Of a stretch of 64,000 bases of DNA, positions 728 through 58,971 are shown in pieces. The notes beneath the pieces are model-generated. The model had not been told where the DNA came from and did not search any database. It was given only the letters and a program-made list of their open reading frames with translations. A program made the position numbers and the translations under genes. Each line of letters opens with the position of its first letter. Position 1 is the stretch's first letter. This DNA is from Candidatus Parvarchaeota archaeon (GTDB lineage: Archaea; Nanobdellota; Nanobdellia; WJKC01). Location: assembly GCA_017608505.1 (NCBI GenBank), contig JAFCFT010000001.1, positions 5,833-69,832 of the forward strand, written 5' to 3'.

Positions 728-1893
728 GAATTGCAATAATGTTGGATAGACTATCACAGGGAGGATATGCAAAAGCAGCTTGCGAAGAAGTTAGAAATTT
801 AAATAAAATGGGGCATAAAGCTGAATTATTAATAATCATGCGTGAAAAATATGATGAGTATCGATTTAATGATTTTCTTAAAGGAATAAAAGTGCGTTTT
901 TTATCAGACTATTTTCCAAAAATTTTTAGAAAGTCATTTAAGTTCCCCTTTTTTTCGTTTTTTTCACTTTTTCATTTAACAAGTTCGTTAGTAGTCCACA
1001 AATCTCTAAAGAAAAACGAATTCGACATAATAGTCGCACATGGTACTTACACATATTTTGCAGTACATGCAATATATAAAAAATTAGGGATTCCATATGT
1101 TTTATTCATTTGGGACCCTATAAGTTATATTTTACCAAAAGCGTACAAAAAAGGAAGTGTGTTGAGATTTGTGTTGCCTATATTAACTTTTTTTGGAAAA
1201 AAATTAGATAAAAAAATAATAAAGGATTCTCTAGGCATTATTACTTGTTCAAAGGTCCATATGAATTTTTTCAAGCAATTATCTAAAAATAAAGTGTATG
1301 TTTCTTATCCTGGCTGTTTTCCAATGAGTAAAATAACTCCACCTGGAGATTACATACTTGCGGTTACTAAATGGGATATAGGGAAAAGACCAGATATAAT
1401 TCTTGATGCTTATAAATTACTACCTAAAAAACTTAAATTAATTGTTGCTGGATTTTGGGTTAGAAAATCAGTAAAAGACGATTTTCTTAAAAAAGTAAAT
1501 GACTATGGTTTATCAGATTGGGTTGAAGTACAAGGACCAGCTGACAAGAAAAAATTAAGGGAGTTGTATTCTAATGCAAGAATATTAATACATCCTTTAT
1601 TCGAGGCTTTTGGGATGATTTGTTTAGAGGCGGCTGAATGTGGTTGTTCTTTTATAATACCTAAGGGTTCTGGTGTTAATGACATATTCAGTAGTGATGA
1701 AGCTTTTTTTCCTAAGGAACATGATGTGATTTCATATGCCAAATATTTATCTATGGTTATAAATAATAAAAAATTAGCAGAAGTTATGGGTAAAAGAGCA
1801 TGGCATAAATCGAAAAAATATACATGGATGGAACATACAAAATCTTTATTAAAGTGTGTAAATAGTGTATTAAAATGCACAAGAAAAAGATAA
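724..1893 (+). CDS. Family-4 glycosyltransferase (GT4, GT-B fold)
   Basis: C-terminal Glycos_transf_1-type signature HPLFEAFGMICLEAAECGCSFIIP (E-x7-E). ATGA coupling to upstream GT2. Confidence 0.75.
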   Translation: MRIAIMLDRLSQGGYAKAACEEVRNLNKMGHKAELLIIMREKYDEYRFNDFLKGIKVRFLSDYFPKIFRKSFKFPFFSFFSLFHLTSSLVVHKSLKKNEFDIIVAHGTYTYFAVHAIYKKLGIPYVLFIWDPISYILPKAYKKGSVLRFVLPILTFFGKKLDKKIIKDSLGIITCSKVHMNFFKQLSKNKVYVSYPGCFPMSKITPPGDYILAVTKWDIGKRPDIILDAYKLLPKKLKLIVAGFWVRKSVKDDFLKKVNDYGLSDWVEVQGPADKKKLRELYSNARILIHPLFEAFGMICLEAAECGCSFIIPKGSGVNDIFSSDEAFFPKEHDVISYAKYLSMVINNKKLAEVMGKRAWHKSKKYTWMEHTKSLLKCVNSVLKCTRKR

Positions 1894-3077
1894 GAATCTT
1901 AGTGTTGTCCTGGCATCCAGAATCTAGAAATTTAATTGCAGGTGGTTTTGTTAAAGCACAAGAAATACTAAAAAGGCGTCCAAAAAATGTTAAAGTATTA
2001 TTAATTGACAAAAAAGGTTCTCTATTAAGATGTGATAAGAGAATTGAGTACTCAATTCCAAGAGGAATAATAAAAATTAGAGATAGGTCATTTATCTTGG
2101 GAAGAGTTTTAGAATGGTTCTACGTTTTTTTATATTTGCTTTATAAGCAAATTTCATTAAATAAATATTATGATGTTGTATATATTCCAACAGCCGAATT
2201 AACTTTTTTAACTCTGTCTGCTGTTATTTCTAAGTTGTTTACAAGAAAAAAAATTATTGCAGATATTCTAAATATTAAAATATTTGGTGGTAATGTTATT
2301 GGTTTTTACCGCATTTTAAGATCAAGAGGATATTCTACTTTTTCTTCTTTAGTTGGTTCTATTGGTACTTTTATTTCAAGAAAATTACTAATATGGTCTA
2401 TAAATAACGCGGATAAAGTTTTAACGATCAGTAAAGATTTAAAAAAAGATTTAACGCGTTATGGCGTGAAAAAAAATATATCAGTCATCCCTGTTGGGAT
2501 AGACATTGCTCTGTATAAAAAAATTAAAAAGCAAAAAAAAATATACGACGCAATTTTTATTGGCAGGCATACTCCTGAAAAAGGCATATTTGATTTAATT
2601 GATGTCTGGAAACTTGTTGTTAAAAAGAAAAAAGATGCTAAGTTAGTTATGGCTGGTTTATGCGATAGTGTTACAAAAGATAAATTAAAAAGGCTTATTA
2701 AAAAAAATAAATTGGAAGATAATGTCTTTTTGATGGGCGAAGTTACCGAATCAAGTAAAATTAAACTTCTCAAACAAAGCAAAACACTTTTATTTTTAAG
2801 CCACATAGAAGGTTGGGGAATCGTTCCATTTGAAGGTCTTGCTTGTGGGCTTCCAGTAATTGCCTATAATCTTCCAGTTTATAAAGAGACAATTAAAGAG
2901 TGTAAGTCCGTCTTTCTTTTTAAAAAAAAGGATTATGCAAATATTTCTAAAAAAGTAGTTAATTTATCAAAAAAATATTCGAAATATAGATTTGAAAGTA
3001 TCTCTTATGTTAAAACTTATTCATGGGATAAAATTAGTGTAAAACAATATTCAGTAATGACTTGTGATTTTAAATGA
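1875..3077 (+). CDS. Family-4 glycosyltransferase (GT4)
   Basis: FIGRHTPEKGI...SHIEGWGIVPFEGLACGLPVIAYN (E-x7-E motif). Overlaps upstream gene by 19 nt. Confidence 0.75.
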   Translation: MHKKKIRILVLSWHPESRNLIAGGFVKAQEILKRRPKNVKVLLIDKKGSLLRCDKRIEYSIPRGIIKIRDRSFILGRVLEWFYVFLYLLYKQISLNKYYDVVYIPTAELTFLTLSAVISKLFTRKKIIADILNIKIFGGNVIGFYRILRSRGYSTFSSLVGSIGTFISRKLLIWSINNADKVLTISKDLKKDLTRYGVKKNISVIPVGIDIALYKKIKKQKKIYDAIFIGRHTPEKGIFDLIDVWKLVVKKKKDAKLVMAGLCDSVTKDKLKRLIKKNKLEDNVFLMGEVTESSKIKLLKQSKTLLFLSHIEGWGIVPFEGLACGLPVIAYNLPVYKETIKECKSVFLFKKKDYANISKKVVNLSKKYSKYRFESISYVKTYSWDKISVKQYSVMTCDFK

Positions 3078-3141
3078 TTATGGTCTGTTATGAATCAAGA
3101 TCAACATTAGAAAATTAAGATTCTAATTACATGCTCAATTA

Positions 3142-3924
3142 TTAAATTTTTTTTGCCGAGATAATGATTCCAGCATCTAAAATTCTAAACCTGTGGAATA
3201 TCGAGTCAAGCAGTATTATAATACCTAATAGCGTTAAATGATTATCAAAAAATGAATTGCCTCCAAATATTGCAACACCTTCATTTTTAGTTATTTTGAA
3301 ATTATTCCGTTTTAGTAAACTGACTAGTTCTTTATTAGACATTACAGATATATGTCCTTCTTCGTCCCATACCTCTTTAGTGATGTTCTTTCCCAAGCGA
3401 TAAAATTCGTATGCTCTATATTTGTCAATGTTAATTATCTTGTTTAGTTTAAGTTTCTCTATTAATTGGTTTTTATTTGGTGTGGTGATTATTAGCGTAC
3501 CGCCTTTTTTTAATTTTAAATAGCACTGTTTTATGAGTTTTTCTGGATCCTTAATATGTTCGATAACCTCTGAACACAGTATTACATCAAAAAAACAATT
3601 CTTGTAAGGAAGTTTTTTATTTAAATCTCCAACTTTAAATTTTACATTTTTAAAATTTCTAAATCTTGCTAGCTCTTTTGCTCTCTTTATTGCATTTTTT
3701 GAAATATCGATTCCATAAAAATCTATATTTTTATTGTTCAAGCCAAGCATGAAAATATCTGTTCCTATATAGCAACCCATATCTAAAACTTTAATTTTTT
3801 TCTTGTTTTCGATTGTTTTATCAAATATGTCTTTAATTTTTCTTTTTAATCTATTTGTAAAATAAATTTCTGATACTGTTCTGTAAAAACTTGTTCCTTC
3901 GCATATTTTATTATAATCTAACAT
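3142..3924 (-). CDS. Class I SAM-dependent methyltransferase
   Basis: Motif I VLDMGCYIGTD, post-I YGIDIS, DVILCSEVIEHI, GGTLIITTPN. Sits inside the GT cluster. Confidence 0.75.
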   Translation of the reverse strand: MLDYNKICEGTSFYRTVSEIYFTNRLKRKIKDIFDKTIENKKKIKVLDMGCYIGTDIFMLGLNNKNIDFYGIDISKNAIKRAKELARFRNFKNVKFKVGDLNKKLPYKNCFFDVILCSEVIEHIKDPEKLIKQCYLKLKKGGTLIITTPNKNQLIEKLKLNKIINIDKYRAYEFYRLGKNITKEVWDEEGHISVMSNKELVSLLKRNNFKITKNEGVAIFGGNSFFDNHLTLLGIIILLDSIFHRFRILDAGIIISAKKI

Positions 3925-5039
3925 TTTAATACCTCCTTAAACATTTTATTGAATCCCTTTGCCGTGTTACTAACAGAAAAATTATTTTCAACGAATTTCC
4001 TTCCATATATGCCTTTCTTAATAATAAATTTATAATCCTTTCTCCATTTATTATAAACATATTGGATTTTGTTAGCTAATTCTTTAGCATTTAATTCTTT
4101 TAGAAACCACCCATTTTTCCCATTTAAGATTAATTTATTTGGTCCAGGAATATTTGAGCTAATTACTGGTAATCCGCAGGAGTTTGCTTCTGTTATAATT
4201 AAGCCGAATGTTTCTTGCCTAGAAGGTGCCAATAATACATCATTGTTCTGATATATTTTAACAATATCATCTACGAATCCTAAATAATTAACTTTGTCAT
4301 TTTTGGCAAGCTCTTCAACCAATCTTCTTTTTTCACCCGATCCAACAATATTAAATTCAACTTTTGCTTCTGGATTTTCTTCTAAAAATCTTTTAATGCC
4401 CTCCACTAATATGTCAACTCCTTTTTGTTCAGCAAGTCTTCCAACGAATAGAAATTTTAGTCTTGAAGTTTTTTTAAATTTTTTCAATTTAAAATCGTCT
4501 GTATTACTTCCTGAAGGAATGTAGTATACTTTTTTAATACCCCATTTTTTCATAATATTTTTGTCCTTATCATTTAAAACATGAATTGCATCAAATTTTT
4601 TAAGCACCCTTTTTGTAATTAATTTGACGTATGTATTGTGAATTTTGTTTTCAAAGAAGAGTGGGGCATGGATACCACATATCATTGGTTTTTTTACTTT
4701 TCTTTTAACGAGATACATTAATATATCTTGGAATATAAACGAGAAATTAAAATACAAAAGATCATACTCTTTAAAGATATTTGCTATTTCTTTGATATTG
4801 TGTACTTTTGGTAGCAATATATTATTCCTAACAAATTCATTGATTCTGTAATGTTTTACATTTTTTATTTTTCCTTTAACTTCTTTATCACTCCATCTTT
4901 TAATAGGGATGAAATTTGTGTCGATTATGTCTATTTGCATATTATATTTATTGATTAAAATATTTGACAGTTCTGAAAACCAATTTTCACACCCGCCACC
5001 ATAGTTTAATGACATAGGTGTATAAAATATGGCTTTCAT
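3918..5039 (-). CDS. Family-4 glycosyltransferase (GT4)
   Basis: FVGRLAEQKGVDIL...PSRQETFGLIITEANSCGLPVISS (E-x7-E). Confidence 0.8.
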   Translation of the reverse strand: MKAIFYTPMSLNYGGGCENWFSELSNILINKYNMQIDIIDTNFIPIKRWSDKEVKGKIKNVKHYRINEFVRNNILLPKVHNIKEIANIFKEYDLLYFNFSFIFQDILMYLVKRKVKKPMICGIHAPLFFENKIHNTYVKLITKRVLKKFDAIHVLNDKDKNIMKKWGIKKVYYIPSGSNTDDFKLKKFKKTSRLKFLFVGRLAEQKGVDILVEGIKRFLEENPEAKVEFNIVGSGEKRRLVEELAKNDKVNYLGFVDDIVKIYQNNDVLLAPSRQETFGLIITEANSCGLPVISSNIPGPNKLILNGKNGWFLKELNAKELANKIQYVYNKWRKDYKFIIKKGIYGRKFVENNFSVSNTAKGFNKMFKEVLKC

Positions 5040-54561: not shown

Positions 54562-55452
54562 GTGATAGACAAAATTGTTAGAGATATTAAGTCTTTAAAG
54601 ATTCAAGGCGCATCTAACATTGCTTGGACAGGCCTCCATGCCTTGGATTATGTGGCAAGGACTTCAAAAGCTAAGAGCAAGAAAGAGTTCTTAAACGAAT
54701 TGCGTGCTGCAAAAAACAAATTATTTGATGCTAGGCCTACTGAGCCCATGCTTCGCAACGCCGTAAGATACGTTCTTTTCAAGGCAAAAGAAACTGACGA
54801 ATTTAATTACAGAAAAGAGACGCGCGATTACATAAAATCATTATATGGAAGCGCTATTAAAGCAAAGAAGCGCGTAATTGATATTGGCAAAAATGTTGTC
54901 AAAAAAAATTACACTGTTTTGACACACTGCCACTCAAGCACTGTTGCAGGAATTCTTAAAAAAGCAAAGCCAAAAAAAGTCATATGCACAGAAACCAGAC
55001 CTTTGTTTCAAGGCAGGATAACTGCAAAAGAACTTGTTAGCGCAGATATAAATACTACTATGATTATTGACAGCGCAGTTGCTGATTTCATTAAAGAGGC
55101 AGACATAGTCCTTCTTGGGTGCGACGTGATAGCTCCAAATTATGTTGTTAATAAAATAGGTTCTAAATGCATAGGGTTGTTGTGTGAAAAGTACGACATT
55201 CCTTTATACATCTGTTCAACAAGTTTCAAGTTTGACCCAGAGTCAAGATATGGCGTTGGCGTCAAGATAGAAGAGCGAAGCCCAAAAGAAGTATGGAACA
55301 AACCTCCAAAAAATCTTAAAATACTAAATCCGGCTTTTGACATCATTGATTACGACAACATCACAGGGTTTATTAACGAGTTGGGAGTCTTTAGTCCTGA
55401 CTCTTTGTTTGTCACTTTACGCGAAAAATACAAATGGATGTTTGAACCATGA
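54562..55452 (+). CDS. eIF-2B alpha/beta/delta-family protein, probable ribose-1,5-bisphosphate isomerase
   Basis: IKSLKIQGASNIA, THCHSSTVAGIL, TETRPLFQGRITAKEL, LGCDVIAPNYVVNKIGS. Genomic link to AMP phosphorylase. GTG start. Confidence 0.7.
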   Translation: MIDKIVRDIKSLKIQGASNIAWTGLHALDYVARTSKAKSKKEFLNELRAAKNKLFDARPTEPMLRNAVRYVLFKAKETDEFNYRKETRDYIKSLYGSAIKAKKRVIDIGKNVVKKNYTVLTHCHSSTVAGILKKAKPKKVICTETRPLFQGRITAKELVSADINTTMIIDSAVADFIKEADIVLLGCDVIAPNYVVNKIGSKCIGLLCEKYDIPLYICSTSFKFDPESRYGVGVKIEERSPKEVWNKPPKNLKILNPAFDIIDYDNITGFINELGVFSPDSLFVTLREKYKWMFEP

Positions 55453-56102
55453 AAAGAGCATTAATTTTTGATGCAACAGGACTTTTGTACTATCGCGAGC
55501 CAGGGCATTACGAGCCATTAAGAGAATTGCTTAGAAGGCAGGGCCTAAAAGTTAGAAATCCTTGGATTGTTTATGACGTTGTAAATAGATACTCAAAAGT
55601 AGGCATTATTCATCAAAAAGAAATGATTGAAATCTTTTTAAAAGTGCTTGGAATTTACACTCCTAAATTTGCAAGAGAATATTTTAAGACCTACAAAAAA
55701 TTAAAGTCGCAAGTTAAATTATGCCCTCATGTTAAAGAAGGACTTAAAAAATTATATGACATGGGCTTTAAATTATTTGTATTTTCTGACAGTTCTACAA
55801 CATCTCTTGAAAAACTTAAATGGCTTAAAAAATTAAAAATTGCAAAGTACTTTGACAAAGTCATTTGCTCTTGCGACGTTGGCTACTTAAAAAGCGACAT
55901 TAAAAAATTTAGAAAATTCTTGAGAATGATAAATGTTAGAAAAAACAATGCAGTTTTTGTTTACCACGAGCTTCAAGATGTTGTAAGCGCCAAGCTTTTA
56001 GGCGTTACATGCGTAAGCGTCAAAAAAGGCATTTTAGAAGATTATTACATTAAAGACTTAAGCGAACTTCCAGAACTTATGAAAAAACTAAATAAGTGTT
56101 AG
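55449..56102 (+). CDS. HAD-superfamily hydrolase-like protein
   Basis: Motif I region ALIFDATGLLY (DxTG rather than DxDxT), motif II VFSDSS, and a C-terminal VYHELQDVVSAKLLG. ATGA-type overlap with the upstream gene. Confidence 0.5.
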   Translation: MKRALIFDATGLLYYREPGHYEPLRELLRRQGLKVRNPWIVYDVVNRYSKVGIIHQKEMIEIFLKVLGIYTPKFAREYFKTYKKLKSQVKLCPHVKEGLKKLYDMGFKLFVFSDSSTTSLEKLKWLKKLKIAKYFDKVICSCDVGYLKSDIKKFRKFLRMINVRKNNAVFVYHELQDVVSAKLLGVTCVSVKKGILEDYYIKDLSELPELMKKLNKC

Positions 56103-56118
56103 CATCCTTAATTTTTCT

Positions 56119-58971
56119 ATGCGCTTAAAAGTTAGAGACTTAAACATATCTGGCGGGAGTTTTGACATTGTAGTTATAAATCAAGACACAGCCTCTTCTT
56201 TAGATATTCACGCCTCAAGCCGTCTGCGCTTGACAAGCGGAAGGCGCTCTGTTGTTGCAGTTGTTGACTTGGCTGAGCCTAATGTATTAAAACGCGGAGA
56301 AATAGGGCTTTTTACAGAAGTTTATGAAAAACTTAAAGTTAAGGACGGCGATTTTGTTAATGTATTTGCAGTCCCTCAACCAGAAAGCGTTGAGTACATA
56401 AAAAAGAAGCTTGACGGCCTTGAATTAAACAGCAACGAGATCAAAAGCATTATAAAAGACATTGTAAAAAACCATCTTAGTCAAGTTGAGATGAGCGCTT
56501 TTGTAACTGCTTGTTACACAAGACGCTTGACCATGGATGAAACATATTATTTGACAAAAGCCATTGTTGATACTGGAGAAACTATCAAATTTAAAGATGA
56601 AGTAATATTAGATAAACATTGCGTTTCAGAAGACACTCCCTTGCTTATTAAAGACACTTCTGGATTAAAAGTTGTACGTTTTAAAGATTTAGGTTTAAAA
56701 TATGATTTTAGAAAATGCGACGCAGAAACTGAAGAGGCGAAAATAACTAATTTAAAAGCATTAACTTTTGATGAAAATAATAAACTTGTTTTTGATGACA
56801 TTGTTTCTATAATTAGACACAAGGCTCCTAAAAAATTATATCGTATAATACTTAAAGGCAATAAATACATTGATTTGACTGATTATCACACAATTTTTGT
56901 TCTTAAAAAAGGCGCAATTAGAAATTTGCCTGTAACATCATTAAGAAAAGGCGATTATGTTGTTGTCCCAAGAGCGTTTAGTTATTCTAAAAAAATAACT
57001 TCAATTAATCTGCTTGAATTTGGTTTAAAAAATGGATTAATTGATAAAGAAATAATATATCATTCAGATGGCACGGTTTCTTTAAAAAAGAGTGGTAAAA
57101 GCATAAATTTAAATATGCCCATTAATACTGATTTAATGCATTTTCTAGGTTTATACTTGGCTGAAGGGTTTACAAATTACCAAGGTGTATTTTTAAATTT
57201 TGGTTCGCATGAAATCAAATTAATCAATAAAGTTATAGAACTTATTGAGAGATTATTTAATGTAACTCCTACAATAAATAAACCTCACAAAACTGCTGTA
57301 AGGATATGTATATACAATCGGTTGCTTGCTAAATTATTCAAGCATTATTTTAAATTTAATGATGGCGCCACGAACAAAAGAATACCTGATTTAATATTTT
57401 CTTTGCCTGATGACCTTAAAATTGAATTTTTAAAAGCTTATGCAATGGGTGATGGTTATGTAAGAAGGGGTTACGAATGCGTTTTTGTAACTAATAGCCC
57501 TTATATTGCTGAGCAACTGCAGTATTTGTTATCCATTCTTGGCATGTCATCATCCATTAGCGAAGCAGAAGAAAGAAATACTATATTCCCAACAAGAACA
57601 TCTAAAGTTAACAAAAGTTACTACATATACACTCAAGCAAGAGAGCTATTTGGAGGCAGGACAGGCGCAAATGTATCTTTTAAAAATTTAATACCAATTA
57701 AAGAATCAGGTTTATATAAATTAGTAAATGAAGATATAGGATGGATCGATAGAAGAAAAATTAAGAATCAAAAATATTTGTGTTTTGAAACTGCTAGAAA
57801 AATATTAAATAAATTAGGCAATAAATATCCTATCCTTAAGAAACTTATTGATTCTGATTTGTCGTTTATAGAAATCAAAGATGTTGTGCCTTTTAATTAC
57901 GCTGGTAAATACGTTTATGATCTAAAAATGAAAAAATATCACAGATTTGTTGCTGGCAAAGGTCCCATGCTAATACATAATTGCATCGGCGGCATTTCAG
58001 GAAACCGCACTACAATGATTGTTGTTCCAATAATTGCTTCTTTTGGCGTAAAAATTCCAAAAACAAGCTCCCGCTCAATTACAAGCCCTGCGGGCACAGC
58101 AGACACAATGGAAATCTTAGCGCCTGTTGAACTTAGTGTCAAAAAAATCAGGCAGGTTGTAACAAAAGCAAACGGGTGCATTGTTTGGGGCGGAAACATT
58201 AATTTGGCAGCAGCTGACGATAAACTAATTAGCGTAAGGCACCCTCTTGCTTTGGATCCTGTAGGCCTTATGCTTGCAAGCATTATGGCAAAAAAGGCAG
58301 CAGTAGGCTCCACTCATGTTTTAGTTGACATTCCTTTAGGTGCTGGCGCTAAAATAAAAGACCTTGGTGAAGCCAAATTTTTAGGAATGCAGTTTATAGA
58401 GCTTGGCAAAAGACTTGGGATCAAAGTTAAGCCAATAATATCAGACGGAAGCAAGCCTATTGGCAAAGGCATAGGGCCTGTTCTTGAGGCGCGAGACGTT
58501 TTAAGCGTGCTAAGAAACGAAATTGGAGCGCCAACTGACTTGTATAACAAGTCTTTAAGGCTTGCTGCTGAACTTCTTGAATTCTCTGGCGTTGTCCCTG
58601 TTGGAGAAGGTTTTCATATTGCTAAAGACATTCTTGACTCTGGCAGGGCATATGAAACAATGAAGCAAATCATTAAACTGCAAGGCGGAGACCCTGATAT
58701 AAGCCCTAGCGCGCTAAGGCCTGGAAAATACGAATACGCTCTTTATTCTCCGAAAACAGGAAAAATAAAATTCATGAACGACGACCTAGTTTCTAAGATA
58801 GCTAGAATGGCAGGCGCTCCAAAAAGCAAAAAAGCAGGAGTATATTTGCACAAGAACGCAGGAGACTTTGTTAAAAGAGGCCAAGAAGTGCTGACAATTT
58901 ATTCAGAATCTGAAGACTTGCTTAAAAACGCAAAAGATGTGATACGCAAAGACTTATTCATCATTACGTAA
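56119..58971 (+). CDS. deoA: AMP phosphorylase (thymidine phosphorylase family, archaeal DeoA-type), interrupted by an intein
   Basis: N-extein MRLKVRDLNISGG...LSQVEMSAFVTACYTRRLTMDE...ILDKH, then C-extein CIGGISGNRTTMIVVPIIASFGVKIPKTSSRSITSPAGTADTMEIL. The extein total of 496 aa is typical of AMPpase. Confidence 0.85.
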   Translation: MRLKVRDLNISGGSFDIVVINQDTASSLDIHASSRLRLTSGRRSVVAVVDLAEPNVLKRGEIGLFTEVYEKLKVKDGDFVNVFAVPQPESVEYIKKKLDGLELNSNEIKSIIKDIVKNHLSQVEMSAFVTACYTRRLTMDETYYLTKAIVDTGETIKFKDEVILDKHCVSEDTPLLIKDTSGLKVVRFKDLGLKYDFRKCDAETEEAKITNLKALTFDENNKLVFDDIVSIIRHKAPKKLYRIILKGNKYIDLTDYHTIFVLKKGAIRNLPVTSLRKGDYVVVPRAFSYSKKITSINLLEFGLKNGLIDKEIIYHSDGTVSLKKSGKSINLNMPINTDLMHFLGLYLAEGFTNYQGVFLNFGSHEIKLINKVIELIERLFNVTPTINKPHKTAVRICIYNRLLAKLFKHYFKFNDGATNKRIPDLIFSLPDDLKIEFLKAYAMGDGYVRRGYECVFVTNSPYIAEQLQYLLSILGMSSSISEAEERNTIFPTRTSKVNKSYYIYTQARELFGGRTGANVSFKNLIPIKESGLYKLVNEDIGWIDRRKIKNQKYLCFETARKILNKLGNKYPILKKLIDSDLSFIEIKDVVPFNYAGKYVYDLKMKKYHRFVAGKGPMLIHNCIGGISGNRTTMIVVPIIASFGVKIPKTSSRSITSPAGTADTMEILAPVELSVKKIRQVVTKANGCIVWGGNINLAAADDKLISVRHPLALDPVGLMLASIMAKKAAVGSTHVLVDIPLGAGAKIKDLGEAKFLGMQFIELGKRLGIKVKPIISDGSKPIGKGIGPVLEARDVLSVLRNEIGAPTDLYNKSLRLAAELLEFSGVVPVGEGFHIAKDILDSGRAYETMKQIIKLQGGDPDISPSALRPGKYEYALYSPKTGKIKFMNDDLVSKIARMAGAPKSKKAGVYLHKNAGDFVKRGQEVLTIYSESEDLLKNAKDVIRKDLFIIT
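56620..57981 (+). mobile_element. Intein (454 aa) with LAGLIDADG homing-endonuclease domain, inserted in the DKH|S phosphate-binding loop
   Basis: Starts at Cys (CVSEDTPLLI), block B TDYHTIF, LAGLIDADG motifs FLGLYLAEGF and FLKAYAMGDGYV, terminal VYDLKM...PMLIHN followed by +1 Cys. In frame: 1362 nt. Confidence 0.85.

Follow-up and report, generated by a model that had tools for sequence, protein, structure and literature searches.

The AMP phosphorylase (AMPpase) gene of a small DPANN archaeon (Candidatus Parvarchaeota), located on the forward strand at 56119..58971 of the 64,000-nucleotide stretch analysed here (contig JAFCFT010000001.1; hereafter the window), is interrupted by an insert of 454 amino acids that is, with high probability, a canonical class-1 intein carrying a nested, double-motif LAGLIDADG homing endonuclease, and is predicted to splice and to home. 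The gene is a single open frame of 950 codons plus the stop and contains this one intein, at 56620..57981 (precursor residues 168–621), as indicated by Pfam, PDB sequence and Foldseek matches and by GC content. The insert separates an N-extein of 167 residues (56119..56619), which comprises the AMPpase-specific N-terminal domain and a helical bundle, ends in ...ILDKH and is recognised by Glycos_trans_3N and by alignment with the structure 4GA5, from a C-extein of residues 622–950 (57982..58968), which comprises the alpha/beta catalytic domain and the PYNP_C domain (Pfam Glycos_transf_3 and PYNP_C). Translation of 56620..57981 gives exactly 454 residues, from CVSEDTPLL to GPMLIHN, preceded by ...EVILDKH and followed by CIGGISGNRTTM; the boundaries given in a preliminary description of this DNA, a 454-residue intein directly after ILDKH, are therefore right to the base.

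The insert is regarded as an intein because its profile scores lie above the respective cut-offs and because both its sequence and its fold match PDB entries. Pfam assigns 60.4 bits to Intein_splicing (cut-off 35.8) and 50.5 bits to LAGLIDADG_3 (cut-off 22.5; intein residues 266–322), and NCBIfam assigns 33 bits to intein_Nterm (cut-off 24.5). The best PDB sequence match is PI-PkoII, intein 2 of the Thermococcus kodakarensis DNA polymerase (1e-22), which covers the N-terminal splicing region and the endonuclease core. The TFIIB mini-inteins match at 1e-14 over residues 5–119 and 405–454, and the C-terminal splicing half of one of them, 5O9I, aligns with intein blocks F and G. The whole precursor was modelled with AlphaFold2 on an alignment of 48 full-length homologues; the model has a mean pLDDT of 85.2 and is confident across the intein, low confidence being limited to the junctions (residues 159–166 and 623–628) and one loop. 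Upon comparison of the modelled insert with the PDB by Foldseek, TliVMA (7QSS, TMt 0.76) and PI-PkoII (2CW7, TMt 0.63) are matched, further matches being PhoVMA, PI-PfuI (1DQ3) and PI-SceI (1VDE), and then many mini-inteins including 5O9I and 4E2U. The Hint fold is present according to both the Intein_splicing score and these matches to solved inteins. As in PI-PkoII, TliVMA and PhoVMA (7QST), the Hint domain holds a nested double-LAGLIDADG endonuclease. In contrast to these elements, which reside in DNA polymerase or V-ATPase hosts, the present one lies in a metabolic phosphorylase; it is ~18–19% identical to them over the fold alignment and belongs to a separate, AMPpase-only family.

Cys1, a TxxH block, a terminal His-Asn pair and a nucleophilic +1 residue are the standard residues of class-1 inteins. 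The corresponding set in the window copy consists of Cys1, T87-x-x-H90, the block F motif YVYDL, H453-N454 and then Cys+1, all encoded on the forward strand. Cys1, the block A nucleophile for the N-S acyl shift, is read from the translation at 56620..56622 (codon TGC), and block B, T-D-Y-H (intein residues 87–90), lies at 56878..56889. The first LAGLIDADG motif, LGLYLAEGF (intein residues 176–184; 57145..57171), provides the catalytic acidic residue Glu, precursor E349, and is modelled as a helix over precursor residues 337–349; the second, AMGDGYV (intein residues 275–281; 57442..57462), provides the catalytic Asp, precursor D445. Blocks F and G extend over 57910..57981, from YVYDL (intein residues 431–435) through HRFVAGKGPMLIHN to the penultimate His and the terminal Asn (453–454). 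The codon of the +1 Cys, TGC at 57982..57984, encodes the first residue of the C-extein, at the Ser position of the K-H-S-x-G-G loop. Across the alignment of 48 sequences (A1), T254 and H257 of block B, as well as Y600, D601, N621 and G350, are invariant, E349, D445, G446 and H620 are nearly so, and the catalytic acidic residues are conserved at ≥90%. The motifs listed in the preliminary description (Cys1, TDYH, two LAGLIDADG motifs and a terminal HN) are all present, with a motif match far beyond chance.

The flanking sequences identify the host as AMPpase. In the precursor, the NCBIfam models AMP_phos, ARCH_P_rylase and PRK04350 are each split into two stretches flanking the insert, and Pfam recognises on the exteins three domains of the thymidine/AMP phosphorylase family, with Glycos_trans_3N at residues 92–153. 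Upon joining of the exteins into a sequence of 496 residues, AMP_phos (TIGR03327) matches in one stretch with 590.7 bits (cut-off 535), residues 3–492 being aligned with model positions 2–488 of 500. Residues 1–485 of the joined sequence align with the T. kodakarensis AMPpase structure 4GA5 (6e-121) without a gap at the junction, where ILDKH-C-IGGISGNRT faces IMDVH-S-IGGVPGNKT, and the extein parts of the AlphaFold2 model superpose on 4GA5 with TMt 0.90 (Foldseek). The flanks thus rejoin into a contiguous AMPpase alignment, and the insertion into the K-H-S-x-G-G loop, as previously proposed, falls precisely after the His of the AMPpase loop and before the residue that follows it. The window enzyme shares with T. 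kodakarensis AMPpase (TK0353; 4GA4, 4GA5 and 4GA6) the AMPpase-specific N-terminal domain, the fold and the pathway partners. The two differ in that the T. kodakarensis enzyme is without an intein and carries D-V-H-S-IGG, whereas the window enzyme carries D-K-H-C-IGG.

In the mechanism proposed for this gene, the 950-residue precursor would be translated whole, Cys1 would form a thioester with His167 of the N-extein, and Cys+1 would attack that thioester by trans-thioesterification. Cyclisation of Asn454 would then release the intein, and an S-N shift would make the DKH-CIGG peptide bond, giving a 496-residue AMPpase with Cys in its phosphate loop. Judging from the intact residues, splicing of the window intein is very likely. 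The freed intein, if its endonuclease is active, would cleave the coding sequence of DKH|C(I/V)GG in alleles that lack the intein, and repair would copy the intein in (homing); the joined-flank, or empty, site of the window allele has the context GATAAACAT|TGCATCGGCGGC.

The window intein is one member of a family. A search of public proteins with the full precursor, clustered at 90% identity, returned 47 other clusters (P0002–P0048) with a homologous intein at the same DKH| site, carried by Nanoarchaeota, Pacearchaeota, Aenigmatarchaeota, Anstonellales and Diapherotrites. They share with the window copy the insertion point, the domain order and the conserved endonuclease motifs, and are 35–46% identical to it (maximum 46.5%, by alignment), the exteins being similarly diverged (39–51%). 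The window copy differs as a long-branch outlier with no relative above ~46%, and some of the other members are of Ser+1 or Ser1/Ser+1 type. When the intein alone was searched, all matches of ≥35% identity sat in AMPpases, the next best, at ≤28% identity, being found in Topo VI-B, GyrB, RNR, RFC and a helicase. By this search the intein family is confined to AMP phosphorylases, most of them from DPANN archaea. The nucleophile pairs of the 48 clusters at this site are Cys1/Cys+1 in 33, Cys1/Ser+1 in nine and Ser1/Ser+1 in six, with position 1 being Cys in 42/48 and Ser in 6/48; the Ser1/Ser+1 inteins measure ~507 residues and the Cys1 forms 420–457. The Ser+1 forms each make up a single clade of the intein tree, with supports of 95 and 100, and for every nucleophile form the +1 residue agrees with that of the nearest intein-free hosts.

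Two further insertion sites occur in AMPpases, each with Ser1 and Ser+1. P0049 (1037 residues) carries an intein at a second site, b (...SRSITSA|intein|SGTADTM), and P0050 (1030 residues) carries one at a third site, c (...GMMLA|intein|SIMAKK). All three sites lie within conserved motifs of the family, namely K-H|C/S-x-G-G at site a, the DKH| site, I-T-S-A|S-G-T-A-D at site b and M-L-A|S-I-M-A-K-K at site c, which by the TP (thymidine phosphorylase) and PyNP enzymes we take to be substrate-binding motifs; with all three there, the usual rule for intein insertion would hold. A broader reading, in which the AMPpases of DPANN archaea host an undescribed, actively circulating intein system at three active-site positions, with the nucleophile series at site a matched to a Cys/Ser dimorphism of the host, appears improbable on present data. 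If true, it would offer a natural system in which to study how inteins retune their chemistry to the +1 residue of the host, and whether access to the AMP/RuBisCO salvage route is controlled by splicing. The series Cys1/Cys+1, Cys1/Ser+1 and Ser1/Ser+1 at one site could also interest intein engineers.

The origin of the +1 Cys deserves separate consideration, as the preliminary description had the intein nucleophile replacing a conserved Ser. The first part of this statement is sound: the residue is Ser in the characterised enzymes (T. kodakarensis AMPpase, TP and PyNP), and in the TP/PyNP family the loop Ser contacts the phosphate (Ser86 in E. coli TP). The loop of the window AMPpase reads K-H-C-I-G-G and thereby departs from K-H-S-x-G-G at the Ser. 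The replacement itself is not supported, since intein-free alleles of the same genus and family also carry Cys: the empty sites in the same-genus genome (G001) and in two same-family genomes read DKH-C-(I/V)GGISGNRT, in intein-free genes of 498–506 codons. The window exteins are 76–78% identical to the G001 allele (C-extein 78%; overall 77% at the amino acid level). Cys is the majority state of the class (26/30 loci, against 4/30 with Ser), and of 80 named genome loci 34 carry it, 45 having Ser and one Gly. The Cys-type loci include cultured Methylobacter svalbardensis and metagenome-assembled genomes (MAGs) labelled as other Gammaproteobacteria, a Peregrinibacteria bacterium from the candidate phyla radiation (CPR) and a Chloroflexi bacterium; among MAGs labelled Bathyarchaeota, Thermoproteota, Hadesarchaea, Archaeoglobus and Odinarchaeota, Ser is the prevailing residue. 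On the extein tree of 226 sequences, 16 changes of the loop residue are needed.

Intein carriage is equal for the two types, 33/155 Cys-type and 15/70 Ser-type proteins (21% each), and when intein-bearing and intein-free proteins are compared in 18 phylogenetically independent pairs, the loop residue is unchanged in ~16.6. On these two results, Cys is rejected both as a trace left by the intein and as a condition for its presence. Because intein-free sisters have Cys, because the paired comparisons show no change, and because same-site inteins with Ser+1 exist, the sequences indicate that the intein makes use of a +1 residue belonging to its host lineage, and does not force a substitution there. 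Likewise, since Cys is a common natural state (34/80 named and 26/30 class loci), the Cys loop is to be read from these sequences as a subfamily trait and not as a ground for exclusion from the AMPpase family. The Cys loop is therefore a widespread natural AMPpase variant, also in bacteria without inteins. The biochemistry of the Cys-type AMPpase constitutes a separate small question.

Two observations on the loop residue stand beside these results. Gly at this position was met in a single case among the 80 named loci, L107 of Candidatus Pacearchaeota archaeon HOT.MB2.108, where the loop reads DKH-G-IGGIEGNRT. Furthermore, archaeal-type AMPpases, 43–48% identical to the DPANN query, occur in bacteria (L084, L086, L088, L093, L101, L108, L113, L115 and L117). 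Besides the cultured Methylobacter svalbardensis, the carriers are MAGs with the labels Methylococcaceae, Thiohalomonadaceae, other Gammaproteobacteria or Pseudomonadota, Chloroflexi, Peregrinibacteria and Patescibacteria; the only one not of the Cys type is L088 (Patescibacteria), which has Ser.

The distribution of the intein is that of a rare and mobile element. The class sample comprises 401 genomes, 278 of which have AMPpase, and intein-length AMPpase frames occur in 3/278 (the window's genome, G402 and G264). Intein presence requires at least 16–23 changes on the extein tree (23 on the tree of 226 sequences), so that its occurrence across the host proteins is patchy, in the way a mobile element would be expected to be spread. 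The empty sister sites, the rarity in the class and the many changes on the tree fit a history of repeated invasion and loss. In base composition, the intein (GC 28.9%) lies below the N-extein (37.1%), the C-extein (42.5%) and the genome (35.3%), and its third-position GC (GC3), at 0.20, is likewise lower than the values of 0.32 and 0.35 for the exteins. For the window copy, a recent gain is inferred from comparison with its sisters.

Several points weigh against a recently gained, fully active element. That the intein was gained here, and not lost from each of the three sisters, is favoured by parsimony only, on unrooted trees. Sliding nucleotide and third-position identity between the window and the same-genus allele (70% and 41%, respectively, with no local dip or peak) did not reveal a co-conversion tract, third positions being saturated. 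A close relative of the window intein was not found (≤46.5% identity), and hence no recent donor can be named. The intein sits on a long terminal branch of 1.22 changes per site, the second longest in the intein tree, with its placement unsettled, and it departs from the family at 16 of the 102 columns that are ≥85% conserved, where the median is 3.5. Since some of these departures are non-conservative (G22K, D204K, C208L, G247N and K294P), the endonuclease may be decaying. The earlier statement that the endonuclease motifs are intact accordingly needs to be divided: the catalytic acidic residues are kept, but the copy is among the most divergent of its family.

It is possible, though rather doubtful, that splicing has been kept while the homing endonuclease is inactive or decaying. 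The intein would then be in a late stage of the homing cycle after fixation, an immobile passenger retained only since imprecise loss would destroy the active-site loop. The long terminal branch and the number of departures, several of which fall in the endonuclease region (residues 171–296), are consistent with this scenario, as is the shift towards AT, which would be expected with relaxed constraint in an AT-biased genome. However, both catalytic acidic residues are intact, and the family motifs EG, DG, FGSHE, PHxTA (PHKTA in this copy), RRGYE and YTQA, 85–100% conserved, are all kept. All 454 codons are open, there are no deletions relative to the family, and the length is among the longest of the Cys1 forms. 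The empty sites in the three sisters, too, are more easily reconciled with a recent gain than with prolonged residence. Taking both sides into account, the chances that the endonuclease of this copy is active may be put at roughly even, or slightly better.

A second alternative, a conditional splicing reaction that serves as a post-translational switch at the start of the AMP/RuBisCO salvage route, for example through a disulfide between Cys1 and Cys+1 that keeps the precursor inactive under oxidising conditions, has little probability. Disulfide control of splicing is reported for some Pyrococcus inteins. Both Cys residues are there in the window copy, the phosphate loop is broken by the insert, so that the precursor should be inactive, and the host enzyme stands at the head of a pathway; the main text of an intein survey (PMC4760082) also proposes that inteins as a whole may have regulatory roles. 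In contrast, same-site inteins of the Ser+1 or Ser1/Ser+1 type cannot form such a disulfide, ~99% of the related genomes run the pathway without an intein, and the sequence contains no feature specific to a redox switch.

A non-splicing insert in a dead AMPpase gene is very improbable. Such a state would suit the divergence of the copy, whose splicing is predicted from its sequence, but the splicing residues are all intact, the exteins are well conserved (77% amino acid identity to the sister, and above the AMP_phos cut-off), the pathway partners are kept, and a second AMPpase copy was not found in the window's genome. Finally, an assembly artefact, in which the contig would join the intein-bearing allele of another population, is hardly credible, for although the genome is a MAG of 22 contigs, and in G264 the 5' part of this gene, which is intein-free, is indeed joined by a run of N to a 3' part that bears the intein, here the frame is kept exactly across both junctions, which lie at the canonical site and show neither N nor a duplication of extein sequence, the gene lies on a contig of 103.8 kb, and both exteins are nearest to the same sister genome.

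The gene of G264 just mentioned merits a description of its own. Locus L011 (G264:C26, minus strand, 1483–4404) reads through an intein-free stretch, DKHCIGG...SPAGTA, into a run of X (N in the DNA); beyond this come a same-site intein, represented by its body and C-terminus, and another C-extein, CIGGVPGNRTTM..., the second in the frame. The arrangement resembles a join made in scaffolding, or a masked stretch, with an intein-free and an intein-bearing allele of one population on either side.

Known intein hosts are mainly replication proteins and ATPases. With the classical hosts (P-loop ATPases and replication proteins) the window gene shares an insertion at the ligand-binding loop of a conserved enzyme; it differs from them in that AMPpase belongs to neither of these two groups. 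The enzyme falls into COG category F (nucleotide metabolism), which is enriched among intein hosts according to the main text of the survey cited above (PMC4760082); the word 'phosphorylase' is absent from that main text. In the searchable literature, including that on DPANN inteins, no description of an AMP, thymidine or nucleoside phosphorylase as an intein host was found, and inteins are unmentioned in the paper on the DPANN/CPR RuBisCO pathway that was checked. The proposal that this host had not been catalogued is thus correct as regards publications, no paper having been found that links inteins to such phosphorylases, but not as regards databases: 47 other clusters with the same site are public, some of them machine-annotated as 'thymidine phosphorylase/intein/homing endonuclease' and one only as 'LAGLIDADG family homing endonuclease'. 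The element is consequently best described as an ordinary class-1 intein in a new host that is apparently unpublished and already present many times in public databases.

The interest of the host lies in its metabolic position. Many DPANN and CPR organisms are thought to rely on the salvage route from nucleotides to RuBisCO, and AMP phosphorylase (deoA-like) would act as the first enzyme of this AMP/pentose-bisphosphate–RuBisCO route. AMPpase therefore adds to the intein hosts an enzyme of central metabolism, at the entry step of nucleotide-to-RuBisCO salvage. In practical terms, precursors of 900–1000 residues may be mis-annotated by gene callers, or by pathway surveys that filter on length or on single-domain matches.

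Upstream of the AMPpase, on the same strand, lie an e2b2-family gene resembling ribose-1,5-bisphosphate isomerase (54562..55452) and, between the two, a gene for a HAD hydrolase (55449..56102), recognised by HAD profile matches only. The best model for the e2b2 gene is TIGR00511 (ribose-1,5-bisphosphate isomerase), at 220.6 bits and below the cut-off of 314, and eIF-2B_rel scores 202 bits against a cut-off of 185.85; with the TIGR00511 score under its cut-off, the isomerase assignment is tentative. The e2b2 and HAD genes overlap by 4 nucleotides, and 16 nucleotides separate the HAD gene from the AMPpase start, so that the three genes probably form one operon. Since the e2b2 gene is found upstream and a form III RuBisCO on another contig (C5; 611.9 bits, cut-off 497), the AMP salvage route of this genome looks complete.

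The genome assembly measures 0.92 Mb in 22 contigs and is 86% complete, and the nearest named relative of the host protein belongs to a MAG labelled Candidatus Parvarchaeota. Ten inteins were found in eight genes, an unusually high load for a genome of 0.92 Mb: one each in SMC, aIF5B, LonB, the PolD large subunit (PolD-DP2), RtcB and AMP phosphorylase, and two each in a FlaI-type ATPase and CDC48. Among these eight hosts, AMP phosphorylase is the only metabolic enzyme. The loci of the eight genes (genome G000) are C17:44607-49760, C6:83772-87299, C11:9727-14745, C4:3907-8925, C4:11878-13959, C16:9356-14203, C3:26935-29892 and 56119-58971 of the window.

Two minor observations concern reading frames. 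The LonB frame (L122; G000:C4:11878-13959, plus strand) encodes 693 residues, consisting of the N-terminal ~230 LonB residues, the N-part of an intein and an endonuclease-like region up to a stop, the frame lacking both a C-terminal splicing block and a C-extein; this may be an intein-bearing gene that is broken or has suffered a frameshift, or else a split arrangement. Within the AMPpase/intein gene of the window, open reading frames on the minus strand at 56547-56870 (107 codons) and 57939-58313 (124 codons) are taken as chance frames opposite the coding region.

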